Virus record (IMG/VR): IMGVR_UViG_2529292906_000017 | From: a virus | Taxonomy: Duplodnaviria; Heunggongvirae; Uroviricota; Caudoviricetes | Direction: 5' to 3' (one strand) | DNA length: 18,305 nucleotides | Shown: positions 1-18,305 of the stretch, one piece after another | Layout of the letters: every line of letters starts with the position of its first letter | Position numbering within the stretch: position 1 is the stretch's first letter | Translations under genes and position numbers: made by a program | Notes under the pieces: model-generated | What the model was told of the DNA's origin: nothing | Seen by the model: the letters and a program-made list of their open reading frames with translations, nothing else | The model's database searches: none

Positions 1-1284
1 TTACAGACTTCTGGAAGGTTGCGCAGCTCTTACAACACGCGGTTGATCTTCCGCAGCGTCTTCCAGCGCACTTAAATCACGGTCTTTCACCTCTGGCATT
101 TTCAGCGCAGAGATTAAACCAATCACTGAATATGCCATGATCATAATGGCGATCGGATACCAGGATTCCGTCATGGTGCAGAAAATACCCGCCAGGATAG
201 GACCAAAACCGGAAGCGATAAGACCACCAATTTCTTTAGAAATAGCCATCCGGGTAAAGCGGTTTTTACAGCCGAACATTTCTGCCATGGTAATGTTTTC
301 CAGAGCAAATAATCCCAGCACCGCACAGTTATGAATCACAATCAGTGCAACCATAATGGTGCTCGGGGCATAGCTTTTATCTACAATGATAGAAAGCATT
401 GGCCATGCCAGCACAATCGCGGAGGTATTCATAATAATATACGGGATCCGGCGACCAATTTTATCGGATAACCAACCAAGGAACGGAATGGTCATAAAGC
501 CGAGAATCGAACTGATCATCAATGCATCTGTTGGAATTGCTTTGTTAAACAATAACGTCTGCACTAAATAGCCTGCAAGGAAAGTCTGAATTAACCCGGA
601 GTTACCCGCCTGACCAAAACGCAGCCCTGTTGCCAGCCAGAAGGATTTGCTCTGGAACATGCTACCAGCAGGTGCAGGTTTTGCTGTCGGTTGGTTACTG
701 TCGTTAACCTTCTCAAAGACCGGGCTTTCTTTCAGATTCATACGCAACCAGATAGCAAAGACCATCACGACAACACTCGCCAGGAACGGTATACGCCATC
801 CCCACGCCAGCAGTTCCTCTTTACTGAGAATGAAGAACATAAAGGCCCAGATTGCCGTTGCGCTCAAGGTTCCGCAGTTAGTTCCCATAGCCACAAATGA
901 GGAGATAATTCCGCGCTTACCTTTTGGCGCATATTCCGCCAGCATCGTACCGGCACCGGAAATTTCCGCACCTGCACCCAACCCCTGAATAATACGCAAC
1001 GTCACCAGCAAGATGGGTGCAAAAACACCAATCTGTGCATAGGTCGGTAACACACCAATTAAGGTGGTACAGATCCCCATCATGGTGATGGTAATAAAGA
1101 GCACTTTTTTACGCCCTATTCTGTCGCCCATTTTGCCGAAAATAAATGCTCCGACAATACGCGCCACATAACCTGCACCGTAGGTTCCCATTGCCAGAAT
1201 TAACGCCATTGCCGTTGATGATTCAGGAAAAAATATTTCATGAAACACTAACGCTGCGCCGAGCGAATATAACTGGAAATCCAT
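1..1284 (-). CDS. ydfJ: MFS transporter (metabolite:H+ symporter family), probably 5'-truncated at the prophage junction
   Basis: 427-aa ORF with MFS motif GDRIGRKKVLF and multiple hydrophobic helices. The first Met aligns with the internal (E-W)-x-D-F position of MHS transporters and an in-frame stop lies 2 codons upstream, so about 25 N-terminal residues are missing. Confidence 0.8.
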   Translation of the reverse strand: MDFQLYSLGAALVFHEIFFPESSTAMALILAMGTYGAGYVARIVGAFIFGKMGDRIGRKKVLFITITMMGICTTLIGVLPTYAQIGVFAPILLVTLRIIQGLGAGAEISGAGTMLAEYAPKGKRGIISSFVAMGTNCGTLSATAIWAFMFFILSKEELLAWGWRIPFLASVVVMVFAIWLRMNLKESPVFEKVNDSNQPTAKPAPAGSMFQSKSFWLATGLRFGQAGNSGLIQTFLAGYLVQTLLFNKAIPTDALMISSILGFMTIPFLGWLSDKIGRRIPYIIMNTSAIVLAWPMLSIIVDKSYAPSTIMVALIVIHNCAVLGLFALENITMAEMFGCKNRFTRMAISKEIGGLIASGFGPILAGIFCTMTESWYPIAIMIMAYSVIGLISALKMPEVKDRDLSALEDAAEDQPRVVRAAQPSRSL

Positions 1285-1887
1285 AATTCACAGGTGTTTT
1301 TTCCCATCCTGTGGTTTCCTTGGCGTTTTCTAGGTTTTTTCAGATAGTTGCATTTTTTAAAAAGCATCCTAAGTTCGATCTCAGTGTCTATCTGGGGCCC
1401 ATTTCTGTCCCATATATGCCCCAAAAAAACTCCTCAACAGATAAGTAGTTTTTTCATGGAGTTACGCGTAAAATCAATAACGGCTGGAAATCATTCAATA
1501 CTCGCACTATCGAAAAATTTACCAGCCAACCGCAGCACGTTCTTGCATAAGGCGTGTCTGCGGTTTTTCAACTATTCAGATACATCACTCCCATCACATT
1601 CATTCCTCCACATCAAAGGCATATAGGCTATATCACCTTGATATTTTTCTTCTTCAGATAAAAACTGTTATCTATGTATACTTTTAAACCCAATCCGTGT
1701 AGAGTCTCTGCATAAGATAGTTTGCAGTTGCCACTTCAGCTTGCGCCATAAACCGCCTGATTTTTGCCGCCATCTGTTAGCATTCCTGTATACCTGAAAC
1801 GACAATGTTTATCTACGAACTTTAAGAACACCCAGGATAAAAATTGTCAACTATATCATATATAACACATTATTAATTCGAGGCTAT

Positions 1888-2001
1888 ATGAACAGCATAC
1901 TGATAATCACTTCGCTCCTTATCATATTCAGCATTTTTAGTCATGCTCTAATAAAATTAGGGATTGGCATATCCAATAACCCAGACAAAACCGATGTATA
2001 A
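1888..2001 (+). CDS. Candidate small hydrophobic protein (37 aa), unassigned
   Basis: ATG at 1888 preceded by GAGG about 8 nt upstream; translation [37 protein letters not shown] has one predicted TM helix. Not in the ORF track (under 60 aa). Could be chance in AT-rich DNA. Confidence 0.2.
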
Positions 2002-2069
2002 GTCAACATATCCTGAATCAGACATACAATATCGCAATGAAAATCAATAATATTTTAAGGAATATATTC

Positions 2070-2302
2070 ATGAAATCAAAAGACACCCTAAAGTGGTTCC
2101 CTGCGCAGCTTCCTGAAGTCAGAATTATCCTAGGGGATGCTGTAGTGGAAGTAGCAAAACAGGGAAGACCTATCAATACCAGAACATTGCTTGATTACAT
2201 TGAAGGAAACATAAAGAAAAATCATGGCTGGATAACAAAGAATTATTACAAACAGCGATATCAGTTCTTAAAGACAACCAAAATTTAAATGGTAAAATGT
2301 AA
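2070..2302 (+). pseudogene. ydfK: YdfK/YnaE-family cold-shock-induced protein with an apparent 1-bp contraction in an A run
   Basis: N-terminal part MKSKDTLKWFPAQLPEVRIILGDAVVEVAKQGRPINTRTLLDYIEGNIKK is in the frame of track ORF 2037..2288. A second open frame (KSWLDNKELLQTAISVLKDNQNLNGKM, stop 2300..2302) joins it only if the A5 run 2217..2221 were A6, giving 77 aa. Confidence 0.55.
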
Positions 2303-2618
2303 TATAATAAACTTACTTCTTTATCATTTTTCCACTTTAACAACATTTTGCTCCACTTTTCCACGACCAAACAACTTGAAATCTGGTTAAAATAACACGC
2401 AACACTATTCTTCTTCCTTGAGTCCGCCCGGAACTCGAAAAACAAACCGAGTTAAAGCCATTTTTCACAAAATCGATTTTGGGTCTCACCAAAGTTACGG
2501 GGTTGCATACGCATTCGTTTATTTTCGAACGTGTACATACAAATATGCACAAAAATAATCAAAATTATTTTCTGAGATGCATTATGATATGAACACCAAT
2601 TTCGTATAGAGTCTCACT

Positions 2619-3209
2619 ATGTCTCGAATTTTTGCTTACTGTCGGATATCAACGCTGGATCAGACCACCGAAAATCAACGCCGGGAAATCGAAAGTGCAG
2701 GTTTTAAAATCAAACCTCAGCAAATAATCGAAGAACACATTAGCGGCTCAGCAGCAACCAGTGAGCGTCCTGGTTTTAACCGGTTGCTTGCTCGCCTGAA
2801 ATGTGGTGATCAATTGATTGTGACAAAACTGGATCGCCTTGGTTGTAATGCAATGGATATCAGGAAAACAGTGGAACAACTGACCGAAACAGGTATCAGA
2901 GTGCATTGCTTAGCATTGCGGGGCATTGACCTGACCAGTCCAACAGGAAAAATGATGATGCACGTAATTTCAGCAGTCGCTGAATTTGAACGAGACCTTT
3001 TACTTGAACGCACTCATTCCGGGATAGTAAGAGCCCGCGGCGCAGGGAAACGTTTTGGTCGACCACCTGTGTTAAATGAAGAACAGAAACAGGTGGTATT
3101 CGAACGAATTAAGTCAGGTGTAAGTATAAGTGCCATTGCCCGGGAATTCAAAACCTCGCGGCAAACCATTTTAAGAGCCAAAGCAAAACTTCAGACACCT
3201 GACATATAA
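2619..3209 (+). CDS. pinQ: Serine recombinase / DNA invertase (Hin/Gin/Pin family)
   Basis: 196-aa ORF; N-terminus [20 protein letters not shown] carries the resolvase/invertase catalytic Ser motif and there is a C-terminal HTH ([20 protein letters not shown]). Symbol inferred from Qin-like context. Confidence 0.88.
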
Positions 3210-3306
3210 AAAATAATCTCGGTGTGAGATGCTTTACGTCTTCCAAGCCCCCTTCCTTGCCGTAAATGGAGAGATACATCTAATTATAGAATTTATATGT
3301 TTTACC

Positions 3307-3882
3307 CTACGGCAGTGCTGGCCATTCAATATCCGGTGCAGTTGATGTATCAACACGGTTCAGCAACACCCGATACTTTTTCCAGGCTTCCAGCAACAAG
3401 GTTTCTTCCTCCGTTGCGATCTCCAGATCCACAGCATCCTGAAGCGGCGCTATATGCTCACTGGCTATCTGCATCAGGCTGTTTTTTGTTTCTTCCGCCT
3501 CCCGGATCCGGAACAGTTTTTCTGCTTCCGTATCCTTCACCCAGGCTGTGCCGTTCCACTTCTGATATTCCCCTCCCGGCGATAACCAGGTAACATTTTC
3601 CGGTAACGGACCGAGTTCAGAAATAAATAACGCGTCGCCGGAAGCCACGTCATAAACCGTTTTACCCCGATGATCTTCAACGAGATGCCACGATGCCTCA
3701 TCACTGTTGAAAACAGCCACGAAGCCTGCCGGAATATCTGGCGGTGCAATATCGGTACTGTTTGCTGGCAGACCTGTATGAGGCGGAATATATGCGTCAC
3801 CTTCACCAATAAATTCATTAGTTCCGGCCAGCAGATTATAAATTTTTATGGTCCGTGGTTGTTCACTCATTCTGAATGCCAT
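3307..3882 (-). CDS. tfaQ: Tail fiber assembly protein (lambda Tfa-like)
   Basis: 191-aa ORF, near-identical over its length to lambda Tfa as recalled ([24 protein letters not shown]...). Start overlaps the stop of the upstream stf fragment. Confidence 0.85.
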
Positions 3883-4190
3883 TACGCAAGCCTCACAATA
3901 TAGTTAAATGCGATGTTTTTGACGGTGTTTTCCGCGTTACCAGCAGCGTTAACGGTGATGGTATGTCCATGTGAACCAATCGCAACGGAGTGCGTATGAG
4001 CACCAATACCGACAGTATGTGCGTGTGCACCTGCGCTTGCAGCAGTACCCGATACAGAGTGCGTATGAGCGCCTGCAGAAGAAGTGTTAACACTGTATTT
4101 AGAATAATCAGGTGATCCACTTCCCGGAGCACCACTGGAACCACCTGAAACAAATGTCATCGAATGGGTATGTGCACCGGCTGTCCCCAT
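3882..4190 (-). pseudogene. stfQ: C-terminal remnant of side tail fiber protein (Stf) with GAHTHS repeats
   Basis: 102-aa ORF with repeated GAHTHS motifs, ending [11 protein letters not shown] as in lambda Stf C-terminus. Only about 100 codons remain; the upstream part is replaced by a J fragment in another frame. Confidence 0.75.
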
Positions 4191-5437
4191 GCATTTACCG
4201 CCCGGACTGTCAGCCTGTAATTTCCCAGCGCCAGCTGCGTGAAGCGATATGTGGTTTCCGTCGTCCGGGCCGTGCTGACCAACCGCTCACTGCCGTCGTC
4301 CGCTGCCACGGTCAGGCGAAGCATAAAGCTCACCCCCTTCACCACCTTCGGCGTGTCCCAGCGCGCCAGCACCTGGTATTCCCCGCTGTCTGCGGTGACT
4401 TCTGCGGTCAGGTGCTGAACTGCTGGCGGCGTGACACCATTCACCGTGCCGCTCTGGTCACCGTCAAAGTGCGCCCCGTTATCCACGATGGCTTCTTTCT
4501 CCGGTACATGCTGCACGGCAGTGATGGCATACGTACCGTCATCGTTCTCACGGATACTCACACAGCGGAACAGGCGCTGACGCAGCGTCGGCAGCTTCAG
4601 CCCCCACACGCTGTACTCGGCAACGCCGTCAGGAACCCGGCTCACTTTCACCTTCACGCCGTCGGTGACGGACTGGACCTCCACGCTCACCGGATTACCC
4701 TGCCCGTCAACCAGGCTTATCAGCGTGGTGCCGGAGGATGGCAGCGTGATTTCACGGTCGAGCGTCAGTGTCCGCGTCTGGCTGTTCACCGCCAGCACGC
4801 GCCCGCCGATGCTGATCCCCGCATAGTCATCATCACAGATTTCAATGACATCACCTGGTACATGGCGAAGCCCTTCGGCACCCACGCTGAAGTCCACGGT
4901 CTGCGTTTCCAGCAGTTCCGTTTTAATCAGCCACAGCCCGGCTCGGTGCGCCTGCCCCCGCCTGGTACAGCCAAAGGCATCCATCTTCGTGACGTTACGA
5001 CCGTAACGGGCAATGGCCTGCGTGTCCTCCACAAGCTCTGTCGCCGTCTCCCAGCCGTTATCCGGGTCAATCCAGTTCACCTCAACGGCATTATGGCGGT
5101 CCTTCAGGGCGCTGAAGCTGTAGCGGAACGGCGCGCCATCATCCGGCATCACCACATTACTGCGGTTATAGGTCCACACCTTATCTGATGGTCGGTCCTG
5201 CACGAACGTCAGCGTCTGCCCGTTCCATACCGGCATACAGCGCATCGCCGAGCAGAAATCACTGAGAACATCCCACGCCTTACGCTGTGTGGTCAGCCAG
5301 GCATTACAGGTGATGCGCGGCTCCGTGCCGCCAAAACCGTCCGGCACCGACTGGTCGCAACACTGGCCGATGACATACAGCGCCCATTTATCCACATCTG
5401 CCGCACCAAGACGTTTACCCATGCCGTAGCGCGGGTG
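4157..5437 (-). pseudogene. Internal fragment of tail tip / host specificity protein J (lambda gpJ-like)
   Basis: Translation from HPRYGMGKRLGAADVDKWALYVIGQ to [11 protein letters not shown] matches lambda J mid-region closely. The first 29 residues of the 455-aa track ORF are an out-of-frame read of Nu1 DNA, and the C-terminus diverges 7 codons before the stop. Confidence 0.8.
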
Positions 5438-5672
5438 GCTGGAGATCTGTCTCGCTGGCCTGCCGCAGTTCTTCAACTTCCCGGCGCAGCTTTTCGTTCT
5501 CAATTTCAGCATCCCTTTCGGCATACCATTTTATGACGGCGGCAGAATCATAAAGCACCTCATTACCCTTGCCACCGCCTCGCAGAACGGGCATTCCCTG
5601 TTCCTGCCAGTTCTGAATGGTACGGATACTCGCACCGAAAATGTCAGCCAGCTGCTTTTTGTTGACTTCCAT
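5415..5672 (-). pseudogene. nohQ: Terminase small subunit Nu1, N-terminal DNA-binding fragment fused into J-derived sequence
   Basis: Translation MEVNKKQLADIFGASIRTIQNWQEQGMPVLRGGGKGNEVLYDSAAVIKWYAERDAEIENEKLRREVEELRQASETDLQP matches lambda Nu1 residues 1-79; homology ends at about 5436 and the frame then reads into J DNA. Confidence 0.8.
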
Positions 5673-5679
5673 TGTTCAT

Positions 5680-5880
5680 TCCACGGACAAAAACAGAGAA
5701 AGGAAACGACAAAGGCCAAAAAGCCCGCTTTCAGCACCTGTCGTTTCCTTTCTTTTCAGGGGGTATTTTAAATAAAAACATTAAGTTACGACGAAGAAGA
5801 ACGGAAACACCTTAAACCGGAAAATTTTCATAAATAGCGAAAACCCGCGAGGTCGCCGCCCCGTAACCTGTCGGATCACC
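5680..5880 (-). other. Lambda-type cos site (cosB, cosN at 5850..5861, cosQ-side flank)
   Basis: Reverse complement of 5673..5861 is GGGCGGCGACCTCGCGGGTTTTCGCTATTTATGAAAATTTTCCGG...GTCCGTGGAATGAACA, i.e. the lambda left end with about 5 substitutions and no indels as I recall it, directly upstream of the Nu1 start. Confidence 0.75.
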
Positions 5881-6060
5881 GGAAAGGACCCGTAAAGTGA
5901 TAATGATTATCATCTACATATCACAACGTGCGTGGAGGCCATCAAACCACGTCAAATAATCAATTATGACGCAGGTATCGTATTAATTGATCTGCATCAA
6001 CTTAACGTAAAAACAACTTCAGACAATACAAATCAGCGACACTGAATACGGGGCAACCTC

Positions 6061-6294
6061 ATGTCAACGAAGAACAGAACCCGCAGAACAACAACCCGCA
6101 ACATCCGCTTTCCTAACCAAATGATTGAACAAATTAACATCGCTCTTGAGCAAAAAGGGTCCGGGAATTTCTCAGCCTGGGTCATTGAAGCCTGCCGCCG
6201 GAGACTGTGCTCAGAAAAAAGAGTTTCTTCTGAAGCAAACAAAGAAAAGAGTGACATTACTGAATTGCTCAGAAAACAGGTCAGACCTGATTGA
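6061..6294 (+). CDS. ynfO: Small ribbon-helix-helix-like prophage protein (77 aa)
   Basis: 77-aa ORF MSTKNRTRRTTTRNIRFPNQMIEQINIALEQKGSGNFSAWVIEACRRRL; basic N-terminus plus beta-strand/helix pattern typical of Arc/CopG-type folds. Symbol from Qin gene order; fold assignment is inference. Confidence 0.6.
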   Translation: MSTKNRTRRTTTRNIRFPNQMIEQINIALEQKGSGNFSAWVIEACRRRLCSEKRVSSEANKEKSDITELLRKQVRPD

Positions 6295-6351
6295 AGCAAT
6301 TTAGATAATCGTGCAGACTACGCCCCCTCATATCACATGGAAGGTTTATCT

Positions 6352-6762
6352 ATGGATCAGGTAGTCATTTTTAAACAAATATTTGATAAAGTTCGAAACG
6401 ATTTAAACTATCAATGGTTTTATTCTGAGCTAAAACGTCACAATGTCTCACATTACATTTACTATTTAGCCACAGAGAATGTTCATATTGTATTAAAAAA
6501 TGATAATACAGTGTTATTAAAGGGCCTAAAAAACATTGTGTCTGTCAAATTTTCAAAGGATAGGCATCTTATAGAAACGACCTCTAATAAGCTGAAATCC
6601 AGAGAGATCACATTTCAGGAATACAGAAGAAACCTTGCTAAAGCAGGAGTTTTTCGGTGGGTTACAAATATCCACGAACAAAAAAGATATTACTATACCT
6701 TTGATAATTCATTACTATTTACTGAAAGCATCCAGAAAACTACACAGATCTTACCACGCTAA
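6352..6762 (+). CDS. ydfO: DUF1398-family prophage protein
   Basis: 136-aa product from the second Met ([30 protein letters not shown]...); the track ORF 6337..6762 adds 5 codons. Placement after ynfO and before gnsB matches Qin order. Confidence 0.7.
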
Positions 6763-6913
6763 ACCATAACGTCCGGCTTCTCTCACTCCTGAGCCGGACT
6801 GCATTGGTTTAATAAAAACCATCAACAATTGTGATTTAGATATTCGGAACCATTCAAATATAACAAAACCCCGTAAAAACGAGGTTTATGGATAAATTTT
6901 ATTATTGAATACA

Positions 6914-7086
6914 TCAGATTAAATTAATCTTGACATCATAGCTTTCAAGACCCGTCATTTTTTCCCGTGCGGTAAACTGAATACTGGTAACTTCTTTCCC
7001 GGTCTTTTTCTTAAGTTCAATAATTTTTTTGTTATATATTCAGAAATATCTGCTTCTGCTTTTGTTTTTAAGTTTTCAATATTCAT
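6914..7086 (-). pseudogene. gnsB: GnsA/GnsB-family protein with an apparent 1-bp contraction in a homopolymer
   Basis: From ATG at 7084..7086 the frame gives MNIENLKTKAEADISEYITKK and stops at 38 aa. A second frame reads IIELKKKTGKEVTSIQFTAREKMTGLESYDVKINLI to stop 6914..6916. They join into a 57-aa GnsB only if the T7 run 7024..7030 were T8. Confidence 0.65.
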
Positions 7087-7257
7087 CATTTCCTCTTTTA
7101 GTCTGTTATGACTTTCCAGTTACACAGTAAGTCGATTATATGGTGCAAACGTGTAAAAGATAAGATGAAACATCGCAATAATCAACATACGATAGTCTAA
7201 ATTTTACACAAACAGACAAAGAGAATTTTCCTGAATTATCAATGCAATAGCATCAAA

Positions 7258-7412
7258 TCAACTCAAGAGCCTTATTGCTGCTTCCAGAATTTCTTCTGAA
7301 GTAACATGTCGATCCGCGGCTACATAAATGACTTTATGATCTCCGGTCAGAGATGGAAACCCTGCGGCCATTACAGTAAGGTGTGTTTTTCGCCATTTGG
7401 ATATTCACGCAT
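7258..7412 (-). pseudogene. ynfN: YnfN-like cold-shock-induced small protein with an apparent 1-bp contraction in a homopolymer
   Basis: ATG at 7410..7412 gives MREYPNGEKHTLL then stop. With one extra A in the run 7386..7390 the frame reads MREYPNGEKTHLTVMAAGFPSLTGDHKVIYVAADRHVTSEEILEAAIRLLS (51 aa), stop 7258..7260. Confidence 0.5.
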
Positions 7413-7529
7413 GATGGTGTTAACTCCAGTCATCGCTGGCACTACCACTGCTGGTTCAGAGTTAAAAAAACTATGATTTTTTCATGATGTTACCGTAGTA
7501 TGTGAGTATCCATCGAATAGACACCAAGC

Positions 7530-7560
7530 AAAAAAGCTCCCGAAGGAGCCTTCATTTTCA
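7530..7560. terminator. Hairpin with flanking A and T runs (possible bidirectional terminator downstream of cspI)
   Basis: AAAAAAGCTCC-CGAA-GGAGCC followed by TTCATTTTCACTTTTTT; on the minus strand the stem is followed by TTTTTTGC. Confidence 0.4.
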
Positions 7561-7756
7561 CTTTTTTAAATCCAACGACAGACGGCTGGCATTTAAGTAT
7601 TGTGAAATATTATCAAATGTAATCATCATTGATTTACAAAAGATACATTTTGCCCCGAAAGGATTCATGTCAGAAACATCAAAAGATGATGTTCTATACT
7701 GGGAACCATGACAACACGGGCATCTAAAGTGAATATGGTTTGTAATATTGTCTACC

Positions 7757-7969
7757 TCAAAGCGCCACTACATGAACAGCGGCAGGACCTTTAGGTCCGT
7801 TCTCAATACCAAATTCAACTTCCTGATTCTCAGTTAATGTTTTGAAATCGTTGCTCTGAATTGCTGAGAAATGGACAAACACATCTTTGCTGCCATCTTT
7901 CGGCGTGATGAAACCAAAACCTTTTTCAGGGTTAAACCATTTCACTAAACCAGTCATTTTGTTAGACAT
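7757..7969 (-). CDS. cspI: CspA-family cold shock protein
   Basis: 70-aa [41 protein letters not shown] with RNP1/RNP2-like motifs (KGFGFI, VFVHF). Confidence 0.9.
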
Positions 7970-8330
7970 AATTATTACCTTTTGAAGAAATTAGCCCTTG
8001 GGCAGAATGGTCCGAAAAAAATATCAGAGAGAAAAACCAACAAGGAAATCTCAAGAGGTACAAATAATAAAATTATAACAATGACTGCTTCAGATAAATT
8101 TGTAACAAACCAGAACACCATTAACGCATGATTAACCACCCATAGCAAGGATTACTTTTGTAAAGAAAAACACAGCAATGAAAGAATAGCTTTATTTATT
8201 AATAAAACGTGTCATTCTGATTAAGACCTTTTATCTTACCCTTAAGATTTCAGGAATTTTGGCTCATGGAAGAGTCCTTTTTATTTAAATTTTACATTCC
8301 GCGATGTAAATGTTCCGATTTAATATTACC

Positions 8331-9353
<1,023 letters not shown>

Positions 9354-9357
<4 letters not shown>

Positions 9358-9665
9358 AGATATTTATGATGAGGACGCTCGTGCTTATTGGCAGGATTTT
9401 CAATCTTAAAGGAGTACTGATGCTGCAGATAAGACTCAACTTTTTCTGACAATTTTTCTGCTACTTCCAGGAAGACTTGCCGGACGCTCCTTCTGGCTGC
9501 TGCCTCATAAAACTCCAGCGCAGCTCCTTCAACACGGTCCATGGCGACATCCAGGTCAAAAATTTCACCGTCAAAGCGTTCTTTGTCCTGTAAGGCTACA
9601 GTTACCGTAACTTTATTCTCAAAATTACGGACTCCTTTCACAACCAGTTCATAGTCTTGAGTCAT
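9354..9665 (-). CDS. ydfR: DUF1327-family prophage protein located between holin and endolysin
   Basis: 103-aa ORF MTQDYELVVKGVRNFENKVTVTVALQDKERFDGEIF...; 4-bp overlap with the endolysin start. Function unknown. Confidence 0.7.
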
Positions 9666-9669
9666 TGGA

Positions 9670-9885
9670 TTACTCTCCTCTCGCAGCCTTACGCCTGTCT
9701 TCTTTAATCTTGAAATAAAGATTTGTCAGATACGTCAGCAGGCCAAAAACCAGGCTACCCAGCACACCGATTGCAGCCCACTGTGACGGAGTTACTTTAT
9801 CGAGTAACTGCAATGCCCAGAAACCAGCATTACCCGCCGATGTGCCATAGGCAACACCTGTTGTTAACTTATCCATTGATTTCAT
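9670..9885 (-). CDS. essQ: Class II holin (phage 21 S-like pinholin) with dual-start motif
   Basis: 71-aa product [71 protein letters not shown]; two TM helices, Met1/Met4 dual start, charged C-terminus. The track ORF 9670..9960 extends upstream. Confidence 0.85.
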
Positions 9886-10104
9886 ATCCTCACCCCGATG
9901 TACACGGATGGTGCAATATGTTTGAAAAGATCGGAGTCTACGGGGTAGTTTTGACAGCACACGTTGTTCTCAACGGCGCTAAAAAAACATACACATTAAA
10001 AATGTGGGTAATTATTTTGAAAGAAAGTCATATATAAAATAATAATACGAGAAATGTTTTCATATTTAGTGTACTGTATACGGCCATTTATACAGGAAAA
10101 GCCT

Positions 10105-10275
10105 ATGTCAGAACGTAAAAACTCAAAATCACGCCGTAATTATCTCGTTAAATGTTCCTGCCCAAACTGCACCCAAGAGTCAGAACACAGTTTTTCAAGA
10201 GTACAAAAAGGTGCCCTTTTGATCTGCCCTCATTGCAACAAAGTATTCCAGACAAATCTTAAAGCTGTAGCCTGA
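10105..10275 (+). CDS. Small zinc-ribbon-like protein (56 aa), unassigned
   Basis: ATG at 10105 preceded by AGGAAAAG; MSERKNSKSRRNYLVKCSCPNCTQESEHSFSRVQKGALLICPHCNKVFQTNLKAVA has CxxC...CxxC spacing. The track ORF starts upstream at 10054. Confidence 0.45.
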   Translation: MSERKNSKSRRNYLVKCSCPNCTQESEHSFSRVQKGALLICPHCNKVFQTNLKAVA

Positions 10276-10333
10276 TTGATTTTATTAGTAACAAGTATTT
10301 TTTATATTTTAATAATATATTTAAAGCAGATAA

Positions 10334-10362
10334 TAAAAAACCCGCCTGAGCGGGTTTGAGAT
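10334..10362. terminator. Rho-independent terminator-like hairpin (stronger on the minus strand)
   Basis: AAAAAA-CCCGC-CTGA-GCGGG-TTT; reverse complement gives stem plus T6. Confidence 0.45.
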
Positions 10363-10517
10363 TGTGGTGCTTTTTGTGGGAGTCATCCACTTACGCACTT
10401 TGTTTTGCCATGCCAGCAGTTAGCTTCTGCTGTAAAACTATTCATGCAGCAAACCTGCACTTCACCACAATGGTTAGCATACTTTTCCTGATTAAGATTT
10501 TGGGTAATGACTCCAAC

Positions 10518-10895
10518 TTATTGATAGTGTTTTATGTTCAGATAATGCCCGATGACTTTGTCATGCAGCTCCACCGATTTTGAGAACGACAGCGACTTCC
10601 GTCCCAGCCGTGCCAGGTGCTGCCTCAGATTCAGGTTATGCCGCTCAATTCGCTGCGTATATCGCTTGCTGATTACGTGCAGCTTTCCCTTCAGGCGGGA
10701 TTCATACAGCGGCCAGCCATCCGTCATCCATATCACCACGTCAAAGGGTGACAGCAGGCTCATAAGACGCCCCAGCGTCGCCATAGTGCGTTCACCGAAT
10801 ACGTGCGCAACAACCGTCTTCCGGAGCCTGTCATACGCGTAAAACAGCCAGCGCTGGCGCGATTTAGCCCCGACGTATCCCCACTGTTCGTCCAT
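10518..10895 (-). CDS. insB: IS1 InsB transposase domain (InsAB' C-terminal part)
   Basis: [65 protein letters not shown]... matches IS1 InsB. Confidence 0.8.
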
Positions 10896-10914
10896 TTCCG
10901 CGCAGACGATGACG

Positions 10915-11214
10915 TCACTGCCCGGCTGTATGCGCGAGGTTACCGACTGCGGCCTGAGTTTTTAAATGGCGGAAAATCGTGTTGAGGCCAACGCCCATAA
11001 TGCGGGCAGTTGCCCGGCATCCAACGCCATTCATGGCCATATCAATGATTTTCTGGTGCGTACCGGGCTGAGAGGCGGTGTAAGTGAACTGTAGTTGCCA
11101 TGTTTTACGGCAGTGAGAGCAGAGATAGCGCTGATGTCCGGCAGTGCTTTTGCCGTTACGCACCACGCCTTCAGTAGCGGAGCAGGAAGGACATCTGATG
11201 GAAATGGAAGCCAC
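10915..11214 (-). CDS. insA: IS1 InsA with altered C-terminus from a shortened A-run at the frameshift site
   Basis: [43 protein letters not shown]... is InsA (zinc finger plus HTH), but the ORF ends ...[18 protein letters not shown] (99 aa) instead of ...RHLKNSGRSR (91 aa) because TTTAAAAACTC has A5 where IS1 has A6C. Confidence 0.8.
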
Positions 11215-11413
11215 GCAAGCACCTTAAAATCACCATCATACACTAAATCAGTAAGTTGGCAGCATTACCAGATTTTGCCAAATATGCTAGCCATTGTTTC
11301 ATGTATTGGACCTCCTTACTTTTTATTAAAGAGATCCAATATTCACTACTCTGTCCGTATCTCTACTCAGGCATCAGCCTTCTTCGTTATCGTATACAGA
11401 CGAGCGATGAATT

Positions 11414-11629
11414 TTAATCAGTAATGATGACATTTGCTGCTGCAGGACCTTTAGCACCACTCTCTATAGAGAAGGTAACCTTTTGACCTTCAAATAAGGT
11501 TCGATAATTATCATTCTGAATCGCAGAAAAATGCACAAACACATCTTTACTACCATCAACAGGAGAAATAAAGCCGAAACCTTTATCAGCGTTAAACCAT
11601 TTTACTAAACCAGTCATTTTATTTGACAT
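11414..11629 (-). CDS. cspB: CspA-family cold shock protein
   Basis: 71-aa [41 protein letters not shown]..., paralogous to the ORF at 7757..7969. Confidence 0.9.
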
Positions 11630-11929
11630 TCTACATTCCTTAACTTGAGCCTTTCGGCATAAATGGTTTGCATAACAGAAACGACTTCGTACTTAATTGG
11701 AGAGACTCAAAGAAGGAATAAGTGAATAACACCTGAAATGAGAACTGCTTTAGTAAACTACTTCGTATATCGTCTGTTCTTCAAACCGACGCAATCATTA
11801 ACGCATAGTTGAACATATGAAGCAATGTTTATTTTAGACATCCAGCCATCTTCAACCCCATCAAAAAACTATAGCTTTCTTCAGGAACGTGTGTATAGTG
11901 CGCCAAGTTATCAGTATTAAGGAATTTTT

Positions 11930-12142
11930 TTGTCCCGTAAAATGACAGGAATTATCAAAACCTTTGACGGCAAAAGCGGCAAGGGTCTTATCACCCCATC
12001 CGATGGTCGTATCGATGTCCAGCTTCATGTTTCAGCGCTCAATCTCCGCGATGCAGAAGAAATTACCACCGGATTACGCGTGGAATTTTGCCGGATAAAT
12101 GGTCTGCGTGGCCCTTCAGCTGCCAATGTTTACCTTTCATGA
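11930..12142 (+). CDS. cspF: CspA-family cold shock protein paralog, apparent TTG start
   Basis: 70-aa ORF (M)[43 protein letters not shown]...; first codon at 11930 is TTG, with AAGGA upstream. Confidence 0.8.
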
Positions 12143-12196
12143 GCTATATTAAAGCTTTAATTTCAGGCCCCATCGGATCACACATGGAGAGTTTTT

Positions 12197-12286
12197 ATGA
12201 ATAACCCCGTCTGTCTTGATGACTGGTTGATTGGCTTTAAAAGCTTATGCTGTACTTTGGCCGTAATAGCTCTGCTAATAATATAA
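12197..12286 (+). CDS. Candidate small membrane peptide (29 aa), unassigned
   Basis: ATG at 12197 preceded by GGAGAG; [29 protein letters not shown] has a hydrophobic C-terminus. Very short; could be chance. Confidence 0.2.
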
Positions 12287-12440
12287 TAAGCAGACTCATT
12301 GTGTTTAGGGACATTGTACTGGAAGAAAACATTTTAAACATCAGGCAAATAACCAAGTCACCAGCTAAATAATAAGTTAACAGACATGAGTCCCGGGATG
12401 AGATTCAACATTACCATTGCCCCATTTAAAGCACAAAACC

Positions 12441-12464
12441 CGCTCATCAGCGGGTTTTCTACTT
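12441..12464 (-). terminator. Terminator hairpin about 100 nt downstream of the Q gene (tR'-like)
   Basis: AAACCCGCT-CATC-AGCGGGTTTT with T-rich tails on both strands. Confidence 0.5.
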
Positions 12465-12502
12465 TTTCTTAACGTCGGGTATACAAAGCCCATCGTTGAA
12501 AA

Positions 12503-12531
12503 ATTTTATCCATATTTTTTGAAAAATGCAA
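12503..12531 (-). promoter_or_regulatory. Putative Q-dependent late promoter (pR'-like)
   Basis: On the minus strand TTGCAT (12526..12531), a 17-nt spacer, then TAAAAT (12503..12508), immediately downstream of the Q stop and upstream of the terminator hairpin. Arrangement resembles lambdoid pR'-tR'. Confidence 0.35.
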
Positions 12532-12562
12532 ACATCATGTCGCCATCTTCAGCAAAAATCAT

Positions 12563-13315
12563 TTATCTCGTCACCTTCCTCAATTGCGCTTCCGCGTATG
12601 CTTCTTCCTGCCAGCACTTTGTTACCAGTTTACCAATGACGTCCGCATACCCCTTATACCACTGATAATCGGTCAGGTCTGGTACCAGCTTCTGGACATG
12701 ACGTCGTGCCAGCGTGGTCGGTAAACGACTAAACCGGTTTCCATTACAACGCCCACAAATCTTATATACCGGTACGCCATGAAACCGGGTTCTTTTTTCA
12801 TCCAGAACAATCCCTTTACCCTTACACCCTCTGCACGCTGTGCTGGCTTCGCCCTTACCATGGCAATGCTGACATAGTTCCTTCACCCATTCTTCCTTGA
12901 TTACAGATTCCCCGCGTCTGTAGTGTTTCACCACTTCGCGCAATACATTATAAAATCCCGTACCTGAACAATGCTCACAGCGAGCCTTACTTGCCGCAGA
13001 CCTGGAGTAATCAGCAAAGGCAAAACTCACGAGGTAAGGAATAATCTGTAACCGGATTTCTTCACTCAATTTGTTCAATGTCGGGTTATCCAGTGCCATC
13101 GCGTAATTTAGCAGGCCTTCAATCGCAAACTGAGGGTCCTGAACACCAACTTTTGCCAGAAATAAGGCCAACCCAAGTGGTGCTTTCGACTGCACCATCC
13201 CCTGCGCTGCCATTACATCCGTAATTGTTAAACAACCGGTGCCTGTCGCTGGAGCGTCATCGCTCAATTTTGGAGATTTTGGGGAGTAATATTTTGGTAA
13301 GGCTTCAAGGTTCAT
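12563..13315 (-). CDS. quuQ: Late-gene antiterminator Q (phage 82-type)
   Basis: 250 aa from MNLEALPKYY...; Cys-rich zinc-binding region CEHCSGTGF...CQHCHGKGE...CRGCKGKG...CGRCNGN. The track ORF 12563..13345 adds 10 upstream codons. Confidence 0.85.
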   Translation of the reverse strand: MNLEALPKYYSPKSPKLSDDAPATGTGCLTITDVMAAQGMVQSKAPLGLALFLAKVGVQDPQFAIEGLLNYAMALDNPTLNKLSEEIRLQIIPYLVSFAFADYSRSAASKARCEHCSGTGFYNVLREVVKHYRRGESVIKEEWVKELCQHCHGKGEASTACRGCKGKGIVLDEKRTRFHGVPVYKICGRCNGNRFSRLPTTLARRHVQKLVPDLTDYQWYKGYADVIGKLVTKCWQEEAYAEAQLRKVTR

Positions 13316-13328
13316 GCTCGTTCTCCAC

Positions 13329-14417
13329 TTACGCCAGTACGCCAATTGCCAGCGCGCGATCGATAAAACGAAATATCAGCTCCAGTTGGGAGCCATACTT
13401 ATCTTCAAATGCCACTGTATCCGTATGCAGCTCGTTGTGATGCTTTCTGCACAAAGGCAACACAAAGAGATCATGTGCTTTTGTTCCCATTCCGCCCTGC
13501 CCGTGACCAATCAGATGATGCGGATCGTCGGCTGGCATACCGCAGCAAGCACACGGCTGTGTCTTAACCCAACGTGTGTATTTCTCCTTAACCCAGCGGC
13601 GACGTTTAGGCAGCTTCATGAAAGATTCCGGAGACTCTGGATCAACGGTGATGCTTACCACCGTCTTTTCCTGTGGTGATTTTTGTTGCTGGTGGGCGTA
13701 AGGCAACGGTGCAAGATTTTTTGTGCGTTGTTTCAATATGCTGGTGGCGGTCTGCTCTCCCGGTACGATGTCGCTTTCGCGGTACACCGAGCAGATTTTT
13801 TCCGCTGGTAATCCCAGCGAACGACGCGATACAGCCTCAGGTAGTGCATCCACCACCTGATTGCAGACCGCCCACCAGGATAATTCAGCCAAAGATAATT
13901 CCCGCTCCTGCGTACCGCTTATTGCGTGACGGATGACGTCAATCACCCATGCTGTCAGATTTTGTTGAGCAAGCAGCTCCAGTGATTCCGATGTCTGGTC
14001 ACGCAGTTGGTTGTCGCAGTGCCAGCACAACACCATTGCGCCGGTACCATAACGGTGAATGACTGTTTCAGTGTGATGGTAATCGCCATTAGGCCACTGG
14101 CAGGATGTAACATGACGTAATAGCCAGTCGGACAATGCGCCAACGCCGCCAGCAGCACGAATCACCCGTTCGTTACTAAAAAACGGCAGCAATGTTTTGT
14201 CTTCCGCCAGCGGCTGGCGAACGGCAGGAACGACTCCGGATGGCAGATTACGCATGCTTTTTGGTTCCGGTTCCACCAGCACTCGAGGATTATGAAATAT
14301 CTGTATGGATTCACGGCCCGGCTTAAGGACCACCAGCCCAAGCTCAGGCACCAGAACAGGTCTAAGTAATACCCGCACGTTACCTCCAGATCCGTTGCTG
14401 GAAAGTGCGGGACGCAC
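13329..14417 (-). CDS. ydfU: DUF968-family prophage protein with Cys/His cluster
   Basis: 362-aa track ORF; C-terminal region TQPCACCGMPADDPHHLIGHGQGGMGTKAHDLFVLPLCRKHHNELH suggests a metal-binding (HNH-like) motif. True start uncertain (Met1 or Met55). Confidence 0.7.
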   Translation of the reverse strand: MRPALSSNGSGGNVRVLLRPVLVPELGLVVLKPGRESIQIFHNPRVLVEPEPKSMRNLPSGVVPAVRQPLAEDKTLLPFFSNERVIRAAGGVGALSDWLLRHVTSCQWPNGDYHHTETVIHRYGTGAMVLCWHCDNQLRDQTSESLELLAQQNLTAWVIDVIRHAISGTQERELSLAELSWWAVCNQVVDALPEAVSRRSLGLPAEKICSVYRESDIVPGEQTATSILKQRTKNLAPLPYAHQQQKSPQEKTVVSITVDPESPESFMKLPKRRRWVKEKYTRWVKTQPCACCGMPADDPHHLIGHGQGGMGTKAHDLFVLPLCRKHHNELHTDTVAFEDKYGSQLELIFRFIDRALAIGVLA

Positions 14418-14658
14418 GTGGTGGGCGTTCGGAATAAGGCAGCCTGACAGAGATTATCCAGTGCCGATAGTCGAGACTGAGAGCTTTCTTAACCTCGAAC
14501 CCGCGCCTGCGGTAAGAATGAATCAGCCATTCGGCCTGTTCTGCAGTGCATGGAGGGTGCTGGAACCATTCAGACTTGAATGCGTGAGAATACCGCCCGT
14601 GCGTGCAGGCAAGAACGGGCGAATTATCAGAATTGTAATATTTTGCGTTGCGTGCCAT
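14380..14658 (-). CDS. Hypothetical 92-aa protein overlapping the ydfU start, unassigned
   Basis: ATG preceded by GGAGAAAAC; MARNAKYYNSDNSPVLACTHGRYSHAFKSEWFQHPPCTAEQAEW... contains a C-x-H...H...C arrangement. Overlaps ydfU by 38 nt in a different frame. Confidence 0.4.
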   Translation of the reverse strand: MARNAKYYNSDNSPVLACTHGRYSHAFKSEWFQHPPCTAEQAEWLIHSYRRRGFEVKKALSLDYRHWIISVRLPYSERPPRASRTFQQRIWR

Positions 14659-14724
14659 CGGTTTTCTCCGGTGGCACGGTGTTACTCAGCGGGAGTTCAG
14701 CCCCGCGCAAGATTGTAGATGAGT

Positions 14725-14976
14725 TTATTCTCCTGAAAAAGCAGAAAAGCCAGCTTTTATTCCGATCTCTTTCAATGCCTGTAATGAAGTGACAAACTCA
14801 CCTTCGCGCAAGATAAATCCGTCCGTGACCCGAGCATCCACAAAATTAATTAACGCAGCCCCATTCTTTCGCAAACACATAATGCGGTAATGACTAACAA
14901 GATTTCCATTTTCAACGCACACAGCATAGAGGCCATCTTCACAAAAAATTTTACGCAGTTCTTCGATGTTCATCAT
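14725..14976 (-). CDS. rem: Rem-like 83-aa prophage protein
   Basis: 83-aa ORF MMNIEELRKIFCEDGLYAVCVENGNLVSHYRIMCLRKNGAALINFVDAR... between ydfU and hokD; symbol assigned from position and length only. Confidence 0.45.
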   Translation of the reverse strand: MMNIEELRKIFCEDGLYAVCVENGNLVSHYRIMCLRKNGAALINFVDARVTDGFILREGEFVTSLQALKEIGIKAGFSAFSGE

Positions 14977-15087
14977 CAGAATCCTTCCGGATAATTAGCT
15001 CTCCCCTTTAAGGGACCATCCCTCTTATCCCTGCGCGCTACTTAAGTATTTTTGATTCTATTCCGGCACCGTCCAGAACTTCAAACG

Positions 15088-15121
15088 CGTTGAAAATAAA
15101 AACAAAAACCCGCCGAAGCGG
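15088..15121 (-). terminator. Rho-independent terminator downstream of hokD
   Basis: Minus strand reads AACCCGC-TTCG-GCGGG followed by TTTTTGTTTTTATTTT; lies 70 nt past the hokD stop. Confidence 0.55.
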
Positions 15122-15192
15122 GTTAAGTGCGGGTGCGTTGAGGATGCCTGCCACATCAGAGGTGGCGAGGGATTTCTCCCCCGCCGGGTCTC

Positions 15193-15348
15193 TTACTCCT
15201 CAGGTTCGTAAGCTGTGAAGACAGCGACCTCCGTCTGGCCGGTTCGGATTCGTACCTCGCAGAGGTCTTTCCTCGTTACCAGTGCCGTCACTATGACGGT
15301 TAAACAGATGACGATCAGGGCGATTAACATCGCCTTTTGCTGCTTCAT
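15193..15348 (-). CDS. hokD: Hok-family type I toxin
   Basis: Reverse-complement translation MKQQKAMLIALIVICLTVIVTALVTRKDLCEVRIRTGQTEVAVFTAYEPEE (51 aa), GGAG upstream; not in the ORF track (under 60 aa). Confidence 0.85.
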   Translation of the reverse strand: MKQQKAMLIALIVICLTVIVTALVTRKDLCEVRIRTGQTEVAVFTAYEPEE

Positions 15349-15419
15349 AGCCTGCTTCTCCTGTCAACGCAAAGCAGAAGTGTCACCTTCGGTGCGAAAC
15401 AGAGATGTCATGCTTTGGT

Positions 15420-15707
15420 TCAGAGAATGCGTTTGACCGCCTCGCTATATACTTCCGAGCGTTCTCTTTTCCCAACAGAAATCACGAAAACGACAACTTT
15501 CTCGTCTATAACCTGGTATACAAGGCGATAGCCTGAAGACCGGAGCTTAATCTTGTAACAATCAGGCATACCACGGAGCTTGTTTGCTTCAATCCGGGGT
15601 GACTCAAGTACTTCAACCAGCTTCTTTTTCAACTGTTCACGTACCGTCGAGCCCAGCTTTCGCCATTCCTTTAGTGCCCGCTCGTCAAAATCCAGAAAAT
15701 ACGCCAT
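15420..15707 (-). CDS. relE: RelE mRNA interferase toxin (type II TA)
   Basis: 95-aa ORF MAYFLDFDERALKEWRKLGSTVREQLKKKLVEVLESPRIEANKLRGMPDCYKIKLRSSGYRLVYQVIDEKVVVFVISVGKRE. Confidence 0.9.
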   Translation of the reverse strand: MAYFLDFDERALKEWRKLGSTVREQLKKKLVEVLESPRIEANKLRGMPDCYKIKLRSSGYRLVYQVIDEKVVVFVISVGKRERSEVYSEAVKRIL

Positions 15708-15946
15708 CAGAGTTCATCCAGCGTCACACGTACTGGCTTAGGATTACGAAGCCGTTCTTTCACTATCTCCACAAGTTCAGCATCTTCATCACTCAGGAGT
15801 GTCTGTTTGAACGGCAAGCGTTCATTGTCAGCGATATACTCGAGCATGAGACGAAGCGCTTCAGAAGGAGTTACACCCATTTTTTCAAGCGCGGCGTAAG
15901 AACGCGCTTTAAGTTCATCGTCAATACGCAGGTTAATGCTACCCAT
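15707..15946 (-). CDS. relB: RelB antitoxin (ribbon-helix-helix)
   Basis: 79-aa ORF MGSINLRIDDELKARSYAALEKMGVTPSEALRLMLEYIADNERLPF...; 1-bp overlap with the relE start. Confidence 0.9.
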   Translation of the reverse strand: MGSINLRIDDELKARSYAALEKMGVTPSEALRLMLEYIADNERLPFKQTLLSDEDAELVEIVKERLRNPKPVRVTLDEL

Positions 15947-15957
15947 GTCTTACACCT

Positions 15958-15983
15958 CTTGTAATTACAAATGTCATTACAAG
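15958..15983 (-). promoter_or_regulatory. relBE operator (relO-like inverted repeat) at the relB promoter
   Basis: CTTGTAATTACAAATGTCATTACAAG contains inverted TTGTAAT/ATTACAA repeats immediately upstream of the relB SD (AGAGGTG). Confidence 0.6.
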
Positions 15984-16149
15984 TATCGCACTACAACATG
16001 CTTAGGGCAAGTCACGAAGGAAGTCAGAAAGTAGTCGTAAGAACGGTGATCACTGTCCGCTTTGTGCCAGGAGCAGCCATTGCTAAGTCCATCCTGTATT
16101 GTGCAGGTCAGCTCGTTTTTAAAGAGTCCGGCCATCATCTTACTGGTAC

Positions 16150-17037
16150 AGACACCATATACTTTGTGACGGTCTGAATCGCCACGGATAATCTAGACAC
16201 TTCCGAGCCGTTGATAATACTGGTTTTCATATTCTGTCGGTGACATCTGATCGCTGGAACCATGCCGACGCTTACTGTTATAAAACATTTCGATGTAATC
16301 AAAAATATCGCTGCGGGCTTCTTCCCGCGTTCCGTAGATCTTTTTCTTTATCCGTTCACGTTTCAACAACTGGAAAAAACTTTCTGCAACCGCATTATCA
16401 TGGCAGTTACCGCGACGGCTCATGCTACCCTCCAGGCCGTGTGATTTCAGGAACGACTGCCACTCATGGCTTGTGTACTGACTGCCCTGATCCGAATGAA
16501 CCAGCACCTTTTTTTCGGGATTACGCCGCCATACAGCCATCAGCAGTGCGTTCAGGACAATGTCCTTTGTCATCCGGGATTGCATGGACCAGCCGATAAT
16601 TTTGCGTGAGAACAGATCAACAACAACGGCAAGATACAGCCAGCCTTCGTGGGTCCTGATGTAGGTTATGTCCGTTACCCAACGCTCATCAGGAGCATCC
16701 GGATTGAACTGTCGCTGGAGCCTGTTGGGTGACACGATACTGGCCTCGCCTTTACGTGCCCGCGGGCTTCGGTATCCGACCTGAGCCTTTATTCCGACAC
16801 GTTTCATCAGTCTCCAGACTCTGTTTACTCCGCACTGTTGCCCGCTGTCACGCAGATCCAGATGGATTTTGCGATAACCATAGACGCATCCCGATTCCAG
16901 CCAGAACTGTTTAATCTGTCCTGTCAGTCTCAGGTCTGCCTGATGGCGTTGTGAATGCGGCTGCTGAAGCCAGGCGTAAAAACCACTGGGATGAACATCC
17001 AGCACCCGACAGAGCAGGCGAACAGGCCAGCAACAGG
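16150..17037 (-). mobile_element. IS600-like IS3-family element, truncated where the next IS begins; outer boundary approximate
   Basis: Contains a complete orfB; its reading frame continues open upstream to 17037, where the TGAACCGCCCCGG terminus of the next IS begins, so orfA and the other end lie outside the window. Confidence 0.7.
16193..17005 (-). CDS. IS3-family transposase OrfB (IS600-like), DDE integrase domain
   Basis: 270-aa ORF (GTG start) with ...WVTDITYIRTHEGWLYLAVVVDLFSRKIIGW...HSDQGSQYTS...CHDNAVAESFF, the DDE motif region of IS3-family transposases. Confidence 0.85.
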   Translation of the reverse strand: MLDVHPSGFYAWLQQPHSQRHQADLRLTGQIKQFWLESGCVYGYRKIHLDLRDSGQQCGVNRVWRLMKRVGIKAQVGYRSPRARKGEASIVSPNRLQRQFNPDAPDERWVTDITYIRTHEGWLYLAVVVDLFSRKIIGWSMQSRMTKDIVLNALLMAVWRRNPEKKVLVHSDQGSQYTSHEWQSFLKSHGLEGSMSRRGNCHDNAVAESFFQLLKRERIKKKIYGTREEARSDIFDYIEMFYNSKRRHGSSDQMSPTEYENQYYQRLGSV

Positions 17038-17091
17038 TGAACCGCCCCGGAAATCCTGGAGACTAAACTCCCTGAGAAAGAGGTAAACAGG

Positions 17092-17418
17092 ATGACTAAA
17101 AATACTCGTTTTTCCCCCGAAGTCCGTCAGCGGGCGATTCGTATGGTTCTGGAAAGTCAGGATGAATATGACTCACAGTGGGCGGCAATTTGTTCCATTG
17201 CCCCAAAGATTGGCTGTACGCCGGAGACTCTGCGTGTCTGGGTTCGCCAGCATGAGCGGGATACCGGGGGCGGTGATGGTGGGCTCACCACCGCTGAACG
17301 TCAGCGTCTGAAAGAGCTGGAACGTGAAAATCGTGAACTGCGCCGCAGTAACGATATCCTTCGCCAGGCTTCCGCTTATTTTGCGAAGGCGGAGTTCGAC
17401 CGCCTCTGGAAAAAATGA
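17092..17418 (+). CDS. IS3-family transposase OrfA (HTH plus leucine zipper)
   Basis: 108-aa [60 protein letters not shown]...[27 protein letters not shown]. Confidence 0.85.
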
Positions 17419-18305
17419 TGCCACTGCTGGATAAGCTGCGTGAGCAGTACGGGGTCGGACCGGTATGCAGCGAACTGCATATTGCCCCGTCAACGTATTA
17501 CCATTGTCAGCAACAGCGACATCATCCGGATAAACGCAGTGCCCGTGCGCAGCACGACGACTGGCTGAAGAGAGAGATACAGCGCGTATACGATGAAAAT
17601 CATCAGGTGTACGGTGTGCGTAAAGTCTGGCGTCAGTTGTTACGGGAAGGAATCAGGGTGGCCAGATGTACAGTGGCGCGCCTCATGGCGGTTATGGGAC
17701 TTGCCGGTGTTCTCCGGGGTAAAAAGGTCCGCACTACCGTCAGCCGGAAAACCGTTGCCACAGGTGACCGCGTAAACCGTCAGTTCGTGGCAGAACGTCC
17801 TGACCAGCTGTGGGTGGCTGATTTTACTTACGTCAGCACATGGCAGGGCTTCGTCTATGTGGCGTTTATCATTGATGTGTTTGCCGGATACATCGTGGGG
17901 TGGCGGGTCTCATCGTCTATGGAAACGACATTCGTGCTGGATGCGCTGGAGCAGGCGTTGTGGGCCCGTCGTCCGTCTGGCACCATCCATCACAGCGATA
18001 AAGGCTCTCAGTATGTGTCACTGGCCTATACGGAGCGACTAAAAGAAGCCGGATTACTGGCATCAACAGGGAGTACAGGCGACTCGTATGACAACGCGAT
18101 GGCTGAGAGCATCAATGGTCTTTACAAAGCGGAGGTAATACACCGTAAGAGCTGGAAAAACCGTGCAGAAGTGGAACTGGCCACACTAACGTGGGTGGAC
18201 TGGTATAACAATCGACGATTGCTGGGAAGGCTGGGCCATACTCCTCCGGCAGAAGCAGAAAAAGCTTATTATGCTTCCATCGGAAACGATGATCTGGCAG
18301 CCTGA
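17415..18305 (+). CDS. IS3-family transposase OrfB (IS629-like), DDE integrase domain
   Basis: 296-aa ORF with ...[31 protein letters not shown]...[10 protein letters not shown]...[16 protein letters not shown]. Confidence 0.85.

Follow-up and report, generated by a model that had tools for sequence, protein, structure and literature searches.

How the beginning of a terminase gene came to lie directly against the middle of a tail gene is the question raised by the locus described here. The window, that is, the whole stretch of DNA analyzed, comprises 18,305 nucleotides and is filed as IMG/VR virus record IMGVR_UViG_2529292906_000017. On its minus strand, the reading ...GATCTCCAGCCA is followed immediately by CCCGCGCTACGGCATGGG... 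(in longer form, ...GAACTGCGGCAGGCCAGCGAGACAGATCTCCAGCCA followed by CCCGCGCTACGGCATGGGTAAACG...), and sequence related to Nu1 of phage lambda gives way at that point to sequence related to J. The first-pass annotation had described a deletion junction at 5430-5445 fusing Nu1 codon 79, out of frame, to the middle of J. BLASTN and protein matches proved this description correct to the base. Lambda 1..427 corresponds to window 5861..5436 (minus strand, 98.1% identity), a match that takes in the left cohesive end, cosB and Nu1 codons 1-79. Lambda 16347..17608 corresponds to window 5438..4177 (minus strand, 92.6%) and represents J codons 282-700; the same segment, 5438..4177, is 98.3% identical to phage mEp460. 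Alignment to lambda Nu1 and J, the check proposed along with the annotation, thus gives breakpoints at lambda 427 and 16347. The J breakpoint had been set at about one-third into the gene; codon 282 of 1132 lies, however, at 24.8%, a quarter of the way.

The Nu1 and J matches overlap only by the triplet CCA (window 5438-5436). Junction 1 is therefore assigned to 5436..5438 on the minus strand, with CCA common to both parents and the crossover within these three bases. The parental Nu1 of the Qin lineage reads ...CTCCAGCCA followed by GGGACT, and the parental J reads ...CTGACCCA followed by CCCGCG. In Nu1, the CCA triplet is codon 79; in J, it is made of the last base of codon 281 and the first two bases of codon 282. 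The microhomology had been proposed as CCA/CAC, of which CCA is indeed shared by both parents while CAC is simply the first J codon. Pro79 of Nu1 is encoded by CCA at 5438-5436 and His282 of J by CAC at 5437-5435, with the two frames one base apart. The Nu1 frame ends at a stop codon (5417-5415) six codons past the join, and a continuous reading frame that would make an in-frame fusion gene is absent. No Nu1 or J variant continuing in frame across 5430..5445 is known, and sister loci hold both parental sequences separate and colinear. No phage record spans the join.

The pieces on either side of junction 1 are remnants of larger genes. Upstream, a lambda-type cos region (cosQ/cosN/cosB; 5663..6114, minus strand) is intact: 448 of 453 positions (99%) are identical to circularized lambda 48250-48502 plus 1-200, and the 12-nt cohesive-end sequence GGGCGGCGACCT is found at approximately 5861-5850. 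Just downstream of cos lies the truncated nohA (Nu1) open reading frame (5415..5672, minus strand), whose 85 amino acids are Nu1 residues 1-79 plus six out-of-frame residues, PALRHG, before the stop. The match to residues 1-79 of lambda gpNu1 is 78/79 identical (E = 2e-57), and profile positions 1-81 of the 164 in Pfam Phage_Nu1 (PF07471) are present. The remnant covers the whole solved DNA-binding domain of gpNu1 (PDB 1j9i residues 1-68; 6hn7_B). It falls short of a full-length small terminase subunit, which would add to the N-terminal wHTH a C-terminal half for oligomerization and gpA binding, and is a fragment of the Phage_Nu1 family rather than a functional member. RefSeq labels its counterpart in strain BUCT2930 'terminase small subunit, incomplete, missing C-terminus'.

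Lambda and Pfam matches delimit, at 4181..5438 of the minus strand, an internal fragment of the tail-tip gene J (codons 282-700 of 1132). Its translation is 95% identical to lambda gpJ 281-700 and matches Pfam Phage-tail_3 and Ig_J. The fragment has no start codon of its own and ends at a stop seven codons past residue 700; both the N-terminal tip-assembly region and the C-terminal receptor-binding domain of a complete gpJ/TipJ are missing from it, in agreement with the RefSeq label 'host specificity protein J, incomplete, missing N- and C-terminus'. A second join, junction 2 (4177..4181, minus strand), is found at the other end of the fragment: J homology ends at 4180/4177, tail-fiber homology begins at 4180, and J codon 700 runs, out of frame, into the last ~100 codons of the side tail fiber gene stf. 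This stf remnant (3882..4180, minus strand; GxHxH repeats, Pfam Phage_fiber; 'tail fiber protein, missing N-terminus' in RefSeq) is followed by an intact tail fiber assembly gene, tfaQ (3307..3882, minus strand; Pfam Caudo_TAP), and by the serine invertase gene pinQ (2619..3209, plus strand), a marker of Qin context. A 455-aa open reading frame (4157-5524, minus strand) starts within Nu1, at an ATG that lies 28 codons ahead of the join and shares the frame of J, and runs through the entire J fragment. RefSeq handles this remnant as a pseudogene, while analogous remnants in strain F829 are treated as real coding sequences (WP_317730679.1 and WP_317730681.1).

Judged by its sequence, the window is the Escherichia coli cryptic lambdoid prophage Qin, integrated in ydfJ. 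Positions 1..1284 are a ydfJ remnant (a 427-aa open reading frame, like K-12 b1543), and the window is colinear with annotated Qin loci and with K-12 MG1655 from 1631002 on. Qin sits between ydfI/ydfJ and rspB, and the rspB boundary falls outside the window. The Qin gene set is found in Qin order: ydfK, pinQ, tfaQ, stf', nohA, ynfO, ydfO, gnsB, cspI and rzpQ/rrrQ/essQ, continuing with cspB, cspF, ydfT, ydfU, rem, hokD and relBE. The parts common to the window and the annotated Qin loci of BUCT2930 and K-12 are 99.7-100% identical, and the BUCT2930 Qin is 99.9% identical to window 294..16174 apart from an IS1 insertion.

Two features elsewhere in the window involve insertion sequences. An IS1 copy at 10503-11270, in the cspB-ynfU intergenic region, carries insA and insB open reading frames (10915-11214 and 10518-10895, minus strand) and is flanked by a duplicated target of ~8-9 bp; it is absent from K-12 and from the remaining Qin loci in the comparison. 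No other Qin locus matches the window past 16174, inside ydfV, and 16175-18305 is IS3-family sequence made of an IS1203-like element and a second IS3 element, with rve/HTH_21 open reading frames. The junction between ydfV and the IS sequence at 16174 was found in no genome of the collection searched.

The same 1,801-bp structure was detected in 25 of 5,426 complete E. coli genomes, a count based on single-piece matches to a 1,801-nt query. The carriers are of varied origin (humans, pigs, birds, a donkey, water and food). A shorter query of 301 nt across the junction returned 58 genomes, a figure that is inflated: separate Nu1 and J pieces up to ~650 bp apart get joined, and FDAARGOS_1337, which carries a different allele, was taken in. 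For the same reason, the numbers of genomes with the FORC 064-type join (89) and with the K-12 join (375) are upper bounds. A survey of 189 strains gives sizes for Qin that range from 11 to 97 kb (PMC6379469); the words 'terminase' and 'tail fiber' do not occur in its text, and the junctions described here are thus not treated in it. The join between Nu1 and J is an undescribed allele of a known element, produced by a known process, and its two halves had already been flagged as pseudogenes by automatic annotation.

The nature of the join is revealed by sister copies of Qin. Strain 1332KP (locus L009) carries a full nohA, the first 246 nt of A, and then L, K, I and J codons 1-700. Strain TB06053 (L010) carries Nu1, pieces of A, W, B, C, G, T and H, and then J codons 55-700. 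Hence, both strains possess at the same locus Nu1 beyond codon 79 and J before codon 282, with the intervening genes in lambda order. Their flanks are 99.9-100% identical to those of the window, and the junction flanks are 100% identical. Removal of 3,416 bp from 1332KP, or of 3,507 bp from TB06053, between the two CCA triplets of each reproduces the window exactly. Sisters at the same locus retain, in lambda order, what the window has lost; a deletion, rather than the fusion of unrelated elements, therefore produced the join. We thus consider it very probable that the join is a scar of prophage decay, left by an internal deletion in Qin.

The size of that deletion, and the number of steps involved, are less straightforward. 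The annotation had proposed one deletion of 15-18 kb. On the lambda map the gap between Nu1 and J is indeed 15,922 bp; a single event of that size is another matter, as the sister structures need only 3.4-3.5 kb removed. The last deletion may therefore have eliminated anything between ~3.4 kb, if the parent was already eroded, and 15.9 kb, if the left arm was intact. Loss of the whole interval from Nu1 codon 80 to J codon 281 by a single ~15.9-kb deletion, from an ancestor with a complete left arm, is a possibility to which we give less than even weight. Besides the 15,922-bp gap, it would account for the clean 3-nt overlap and for the lack of internal remnants; moreover, the pieces kept across sisters jointly span Nu1, A, W, B, C, G, T, H, L, K, I and J, thereby implying that an ancestor with a complete arm and junction 2 existed. 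However, 1332KP and TB06053 are already without most of the left arm, and such eroded sisters, with identical flanks, give the same join by a deletion of 3.4-3.5 kb. Stepwise erosion is also documented in this clade, because P13-6 carries the Qin of 1332KP shortened by 2,935 bp, its flanks 100% identical and the join between the remnant of A and L unchanged. Furthermore, none of the 5,426 genomes contained a complete-arm Qin with junction 2. The query for this search was chimeric (the mEp460 I/J 5' part plus the J-stf-tfaQ portion of the window) and returned partly eroded sisters, the best match being 1332KP, which is without most of A through M. SNPs in the shared flanks did not identify the immediate parent of the window allele: variable sites were too few, and none was informative.

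Recombination among lambdoid prophages is frequent, and one may thus ask whether the join arose by illegitimate recombination between two different prophages or between a prophage and a newly arriving phage, or whether horizontal transfer brought it in already formed. The raw material is at hand: a median of 3-4 places per E. coli genome match these Nu1 and J segments, and Nu1-plus-J remnants with about 95% identity, some of them annotated nohD, are found elsewhere. Against such an origin, the Nu1 and J sequences on either side of the join match those of Qin sisters at the same locus at 100%, while lambda and mEp460 sequences, when directly compared, are only 92.6-98.3% identical; in addition, the flanking genes on either side are Qin genes in Qin order. 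We consider exchange or import highly improbable, and internal deletion in Qin is retained as the origin of the join. As a separate observation, E. coli B, C and others carry Nu1 and J fragments ~95% identical to those of the window and 480 bp further apart than here. Similar remnants with Nu1 next to J therefore occur in other lineages, and nohD is the name given to some such places. An assembly or sequencing artefact, of practically nil probability, is refuted by the presence of the identical 1,801-bp structure, as a single aligned piece, in 25 independent complete genomes.

Junction 2 helps to order the events. It was present in all six other sister loci in which a 301-nt segment was checked, identical in five (L004, L008, L009, L010 and L011) and with one mismatch in the sixth (L007). 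It was also detected in 92 genomes, compared with 25 for the full window structure, and in more variants. This wider sharing suggests that junction 2 may be older than junction 1.

On these grounds, the following scenario may be proposed. The left arm of a Qin-lineage ancestor would have resembled that of lambda (cos, Nu1, A ... J, stf) but would already have lost the DNA running from the latter half of J almost to the 3' end of stf, yielding junction 2. Later, illegitimate recombination of the RecA-independent, short-homology type, either by replication slippage or by microhomology-mediated end joining, would have paired the CCA of Nu1 codon 79 with the CCA at J codons 281/282, and everything between them would have been removed. 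We infer both this molecular mechanism and a single event that was subsequently inherited, in either case from sequence comparison. The annotation had held that microhomology at the join suggests illegitimate recombination. For this junction taken alone the argument is weak, as a 3-nt overlap has a chance probability of about 0.05. Pooling the perfect overlaps of eight Qin junctions (3, 4, 4, 3, 2, 1, 3 and 5 nt) supports it: they sum to 25 against 5.3 expected (P = 5.9e-7), with a mean of ~3 nt against 0.67 expected per junction. Overlaps were measured in part against lambda instead of the true parents, which may shift any of them by a base or two. The pooled values fit short-homology illegitimate recombination.

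Base-by-base alignment revealed no filler bases, IS ends, target duplication or recombinase core site at the join. The hairpin potential of the Nu1 codon-79 breakpoint was ordinary when compared with shuffled sequences (z = 0.15). Spontaneous lacI deletions in E. coli and the formation of lambda bio and gal transducing phages are RecA-independent events that involve short homologies. The join described here resembles short-homology deletions of E. coli in being clean, with few bases common to the parents and neither added bases nor mobile-element ends; unlike in those systems, the event has to be reconstructed from its product alone.

Additional alleles of the same interval are found in the sister strains 1332KP, TB06053, P13-6, FORC 064, F829 and FDAARGOS_1337, which have in common the locus, junction 2 and flanks that are nearly identical. 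In each of the six, the joins are short-overlap deletions within the Nu1...J interval. In lambda coordinates, 956 is joined to 13434 in 1332KP; 703 to 2177 in TB06053, which has three further joins; 703 to 17302 in FORC 064; 701 to 16726 in F829; and 699 to 16135 in FDAARGOS_1337. At least eight deletion architectures of the Nu1...stf interval coexist (loci L003, L004, L008, L009, L010, L011 and L013, compared with window 3300-6600). Alleles with junction 2 show only about 5 variable sites over 2.3 kb of shared flank, and deletions appear to be at least as numerous as point substitutions over the flanks compared.

The K-12 MG1655 allele (nohA b1548 / stfQ b1547) offers a further comparison. 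It occupies the same ydfJ locus, has the same cos and Nu1 N-terminus, and is flanked as in the window, by pinQ and tfaQ at one end and by ynfO, ydfO, cspI, the lysis genes and relBE at the other. A deletion has truncated its Nu1 as well, but only after about codon 177 (lambda nt 719), and the 320-aa stfQ follows at once, with no J between; in the window, in contrast, the break is at codon 79 and is followed by J codons 282-700 and junction 2. In the 1.1 kb upstream, K-12 shows 10 differences, while hardly any separate the junction-2 variants from one another. The K-12 and window alleles are independent outcomes, and neither can be derived from the other.

A recurrent breakpoint was observed among the sisters. 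Four other Qin alleles have left breakpoints within 3 nt of one Nu1 site (lambda 698-700, GAACTGATA followed by CC, nohA codons ~169-170), found at 5848-5857 in L004, ~3129-3136 in L008, ~1443-1450 in L010 and 1931-1937 in L011. Each allele has a right partner of its own: A 2177, J 16135, J 16726 and J 17302. The hairpin potential of the codon-169/170 site was no better than that of shuffled sequences (z = 0.13). Recurrence could reflect a hot spot, selection, serial derivation, or re-use of a GATAA repeat from an earlier join. A pseudo-site for an invertase of the Pin/Hin type was also considered for the joins at GATA(A). The half-sites of hix end in TGATAA, and enzymes of this type exchange strands at the two central base pairs of a 26-bp site. 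The geometry of such a crossover does not fit the joins, and the candidate was rejected.

As regards function, the deletion has cut nohA to 79 codons plus six junk codons and has left J as an internal fragment without promoter or start codon. Both remnants are pseudogenes, and RefSeq flags both as partial pseudogenes. Because the large terminase subunit (gpA) and all head and tail genes have been lost, the Qin element found here is not packageable. When compared with lambda gpNu1, whose N-terminal domain is solved (PDB 1J9I residues 1-68; 6HN7), the 85-aa remnant contains the whole domain (78/79 residues) but is, by position, without residues 80-181, and gpA is absent from the locus. Residues 80-181 of gpNu1 include the region of interaction with gpA. 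The intact cos and the NohA DNA-binding domain make up a putative cos-binding module without a nuclease partner.

All variants seen retain an intact cos and no less than the NohA DNA-binding domain, all have lost an intact large terminase subunit, and four independent joins begin within 3 nt of one Nu1 site. On this basis, erosion of the left arm might be viewed as non-random, either by selection against cutting of the chromosome at cos, by a role of the NohA fragment as a cos-binding factor that interferes with the packaging of incoming lambdoid phages, or by a sequence-specific break hot spot; we regard this view as very unlikely. Very unlikely, too, is a present function of the products, be it an 85-aa NohA fragment kept by selection beside the intact cos, perhaps interfering with lambdoid packaging, or a frameshifted Nu1-J fusion. 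The fragment does span the entire solved DNA-binding domain (a winged-helix, cosB-binding domain), the adjacent cos is 99% identical to that of lambda, and 8 of 8 variants keep cos and at least Nu1 residues 1-79, all without an intact gpA. However, RefSeq calls both pieces pseudogenes, and survival of the 5' end would be just as likely if deletions simply ended short of the neighboring moron genes. The coding sequence shows only 3 nucleotide differences from lambda in 237 bases, which leaves a selection test without power. Programmed frameshifting across the join was discarded: the J frame is offset by one base, and no slippery heptamer was seen by eye.

Erosion of prophages by deletion is textbook knowledge, and the join between Nu1 and J, considered alone, is of small importance. 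Its value, a modest one, is that of a data point on the speed at which prophages erode. The allelic series to which it belongs could serve for ordering the steps of Qin decay and for studying how breakpoints are chosen.
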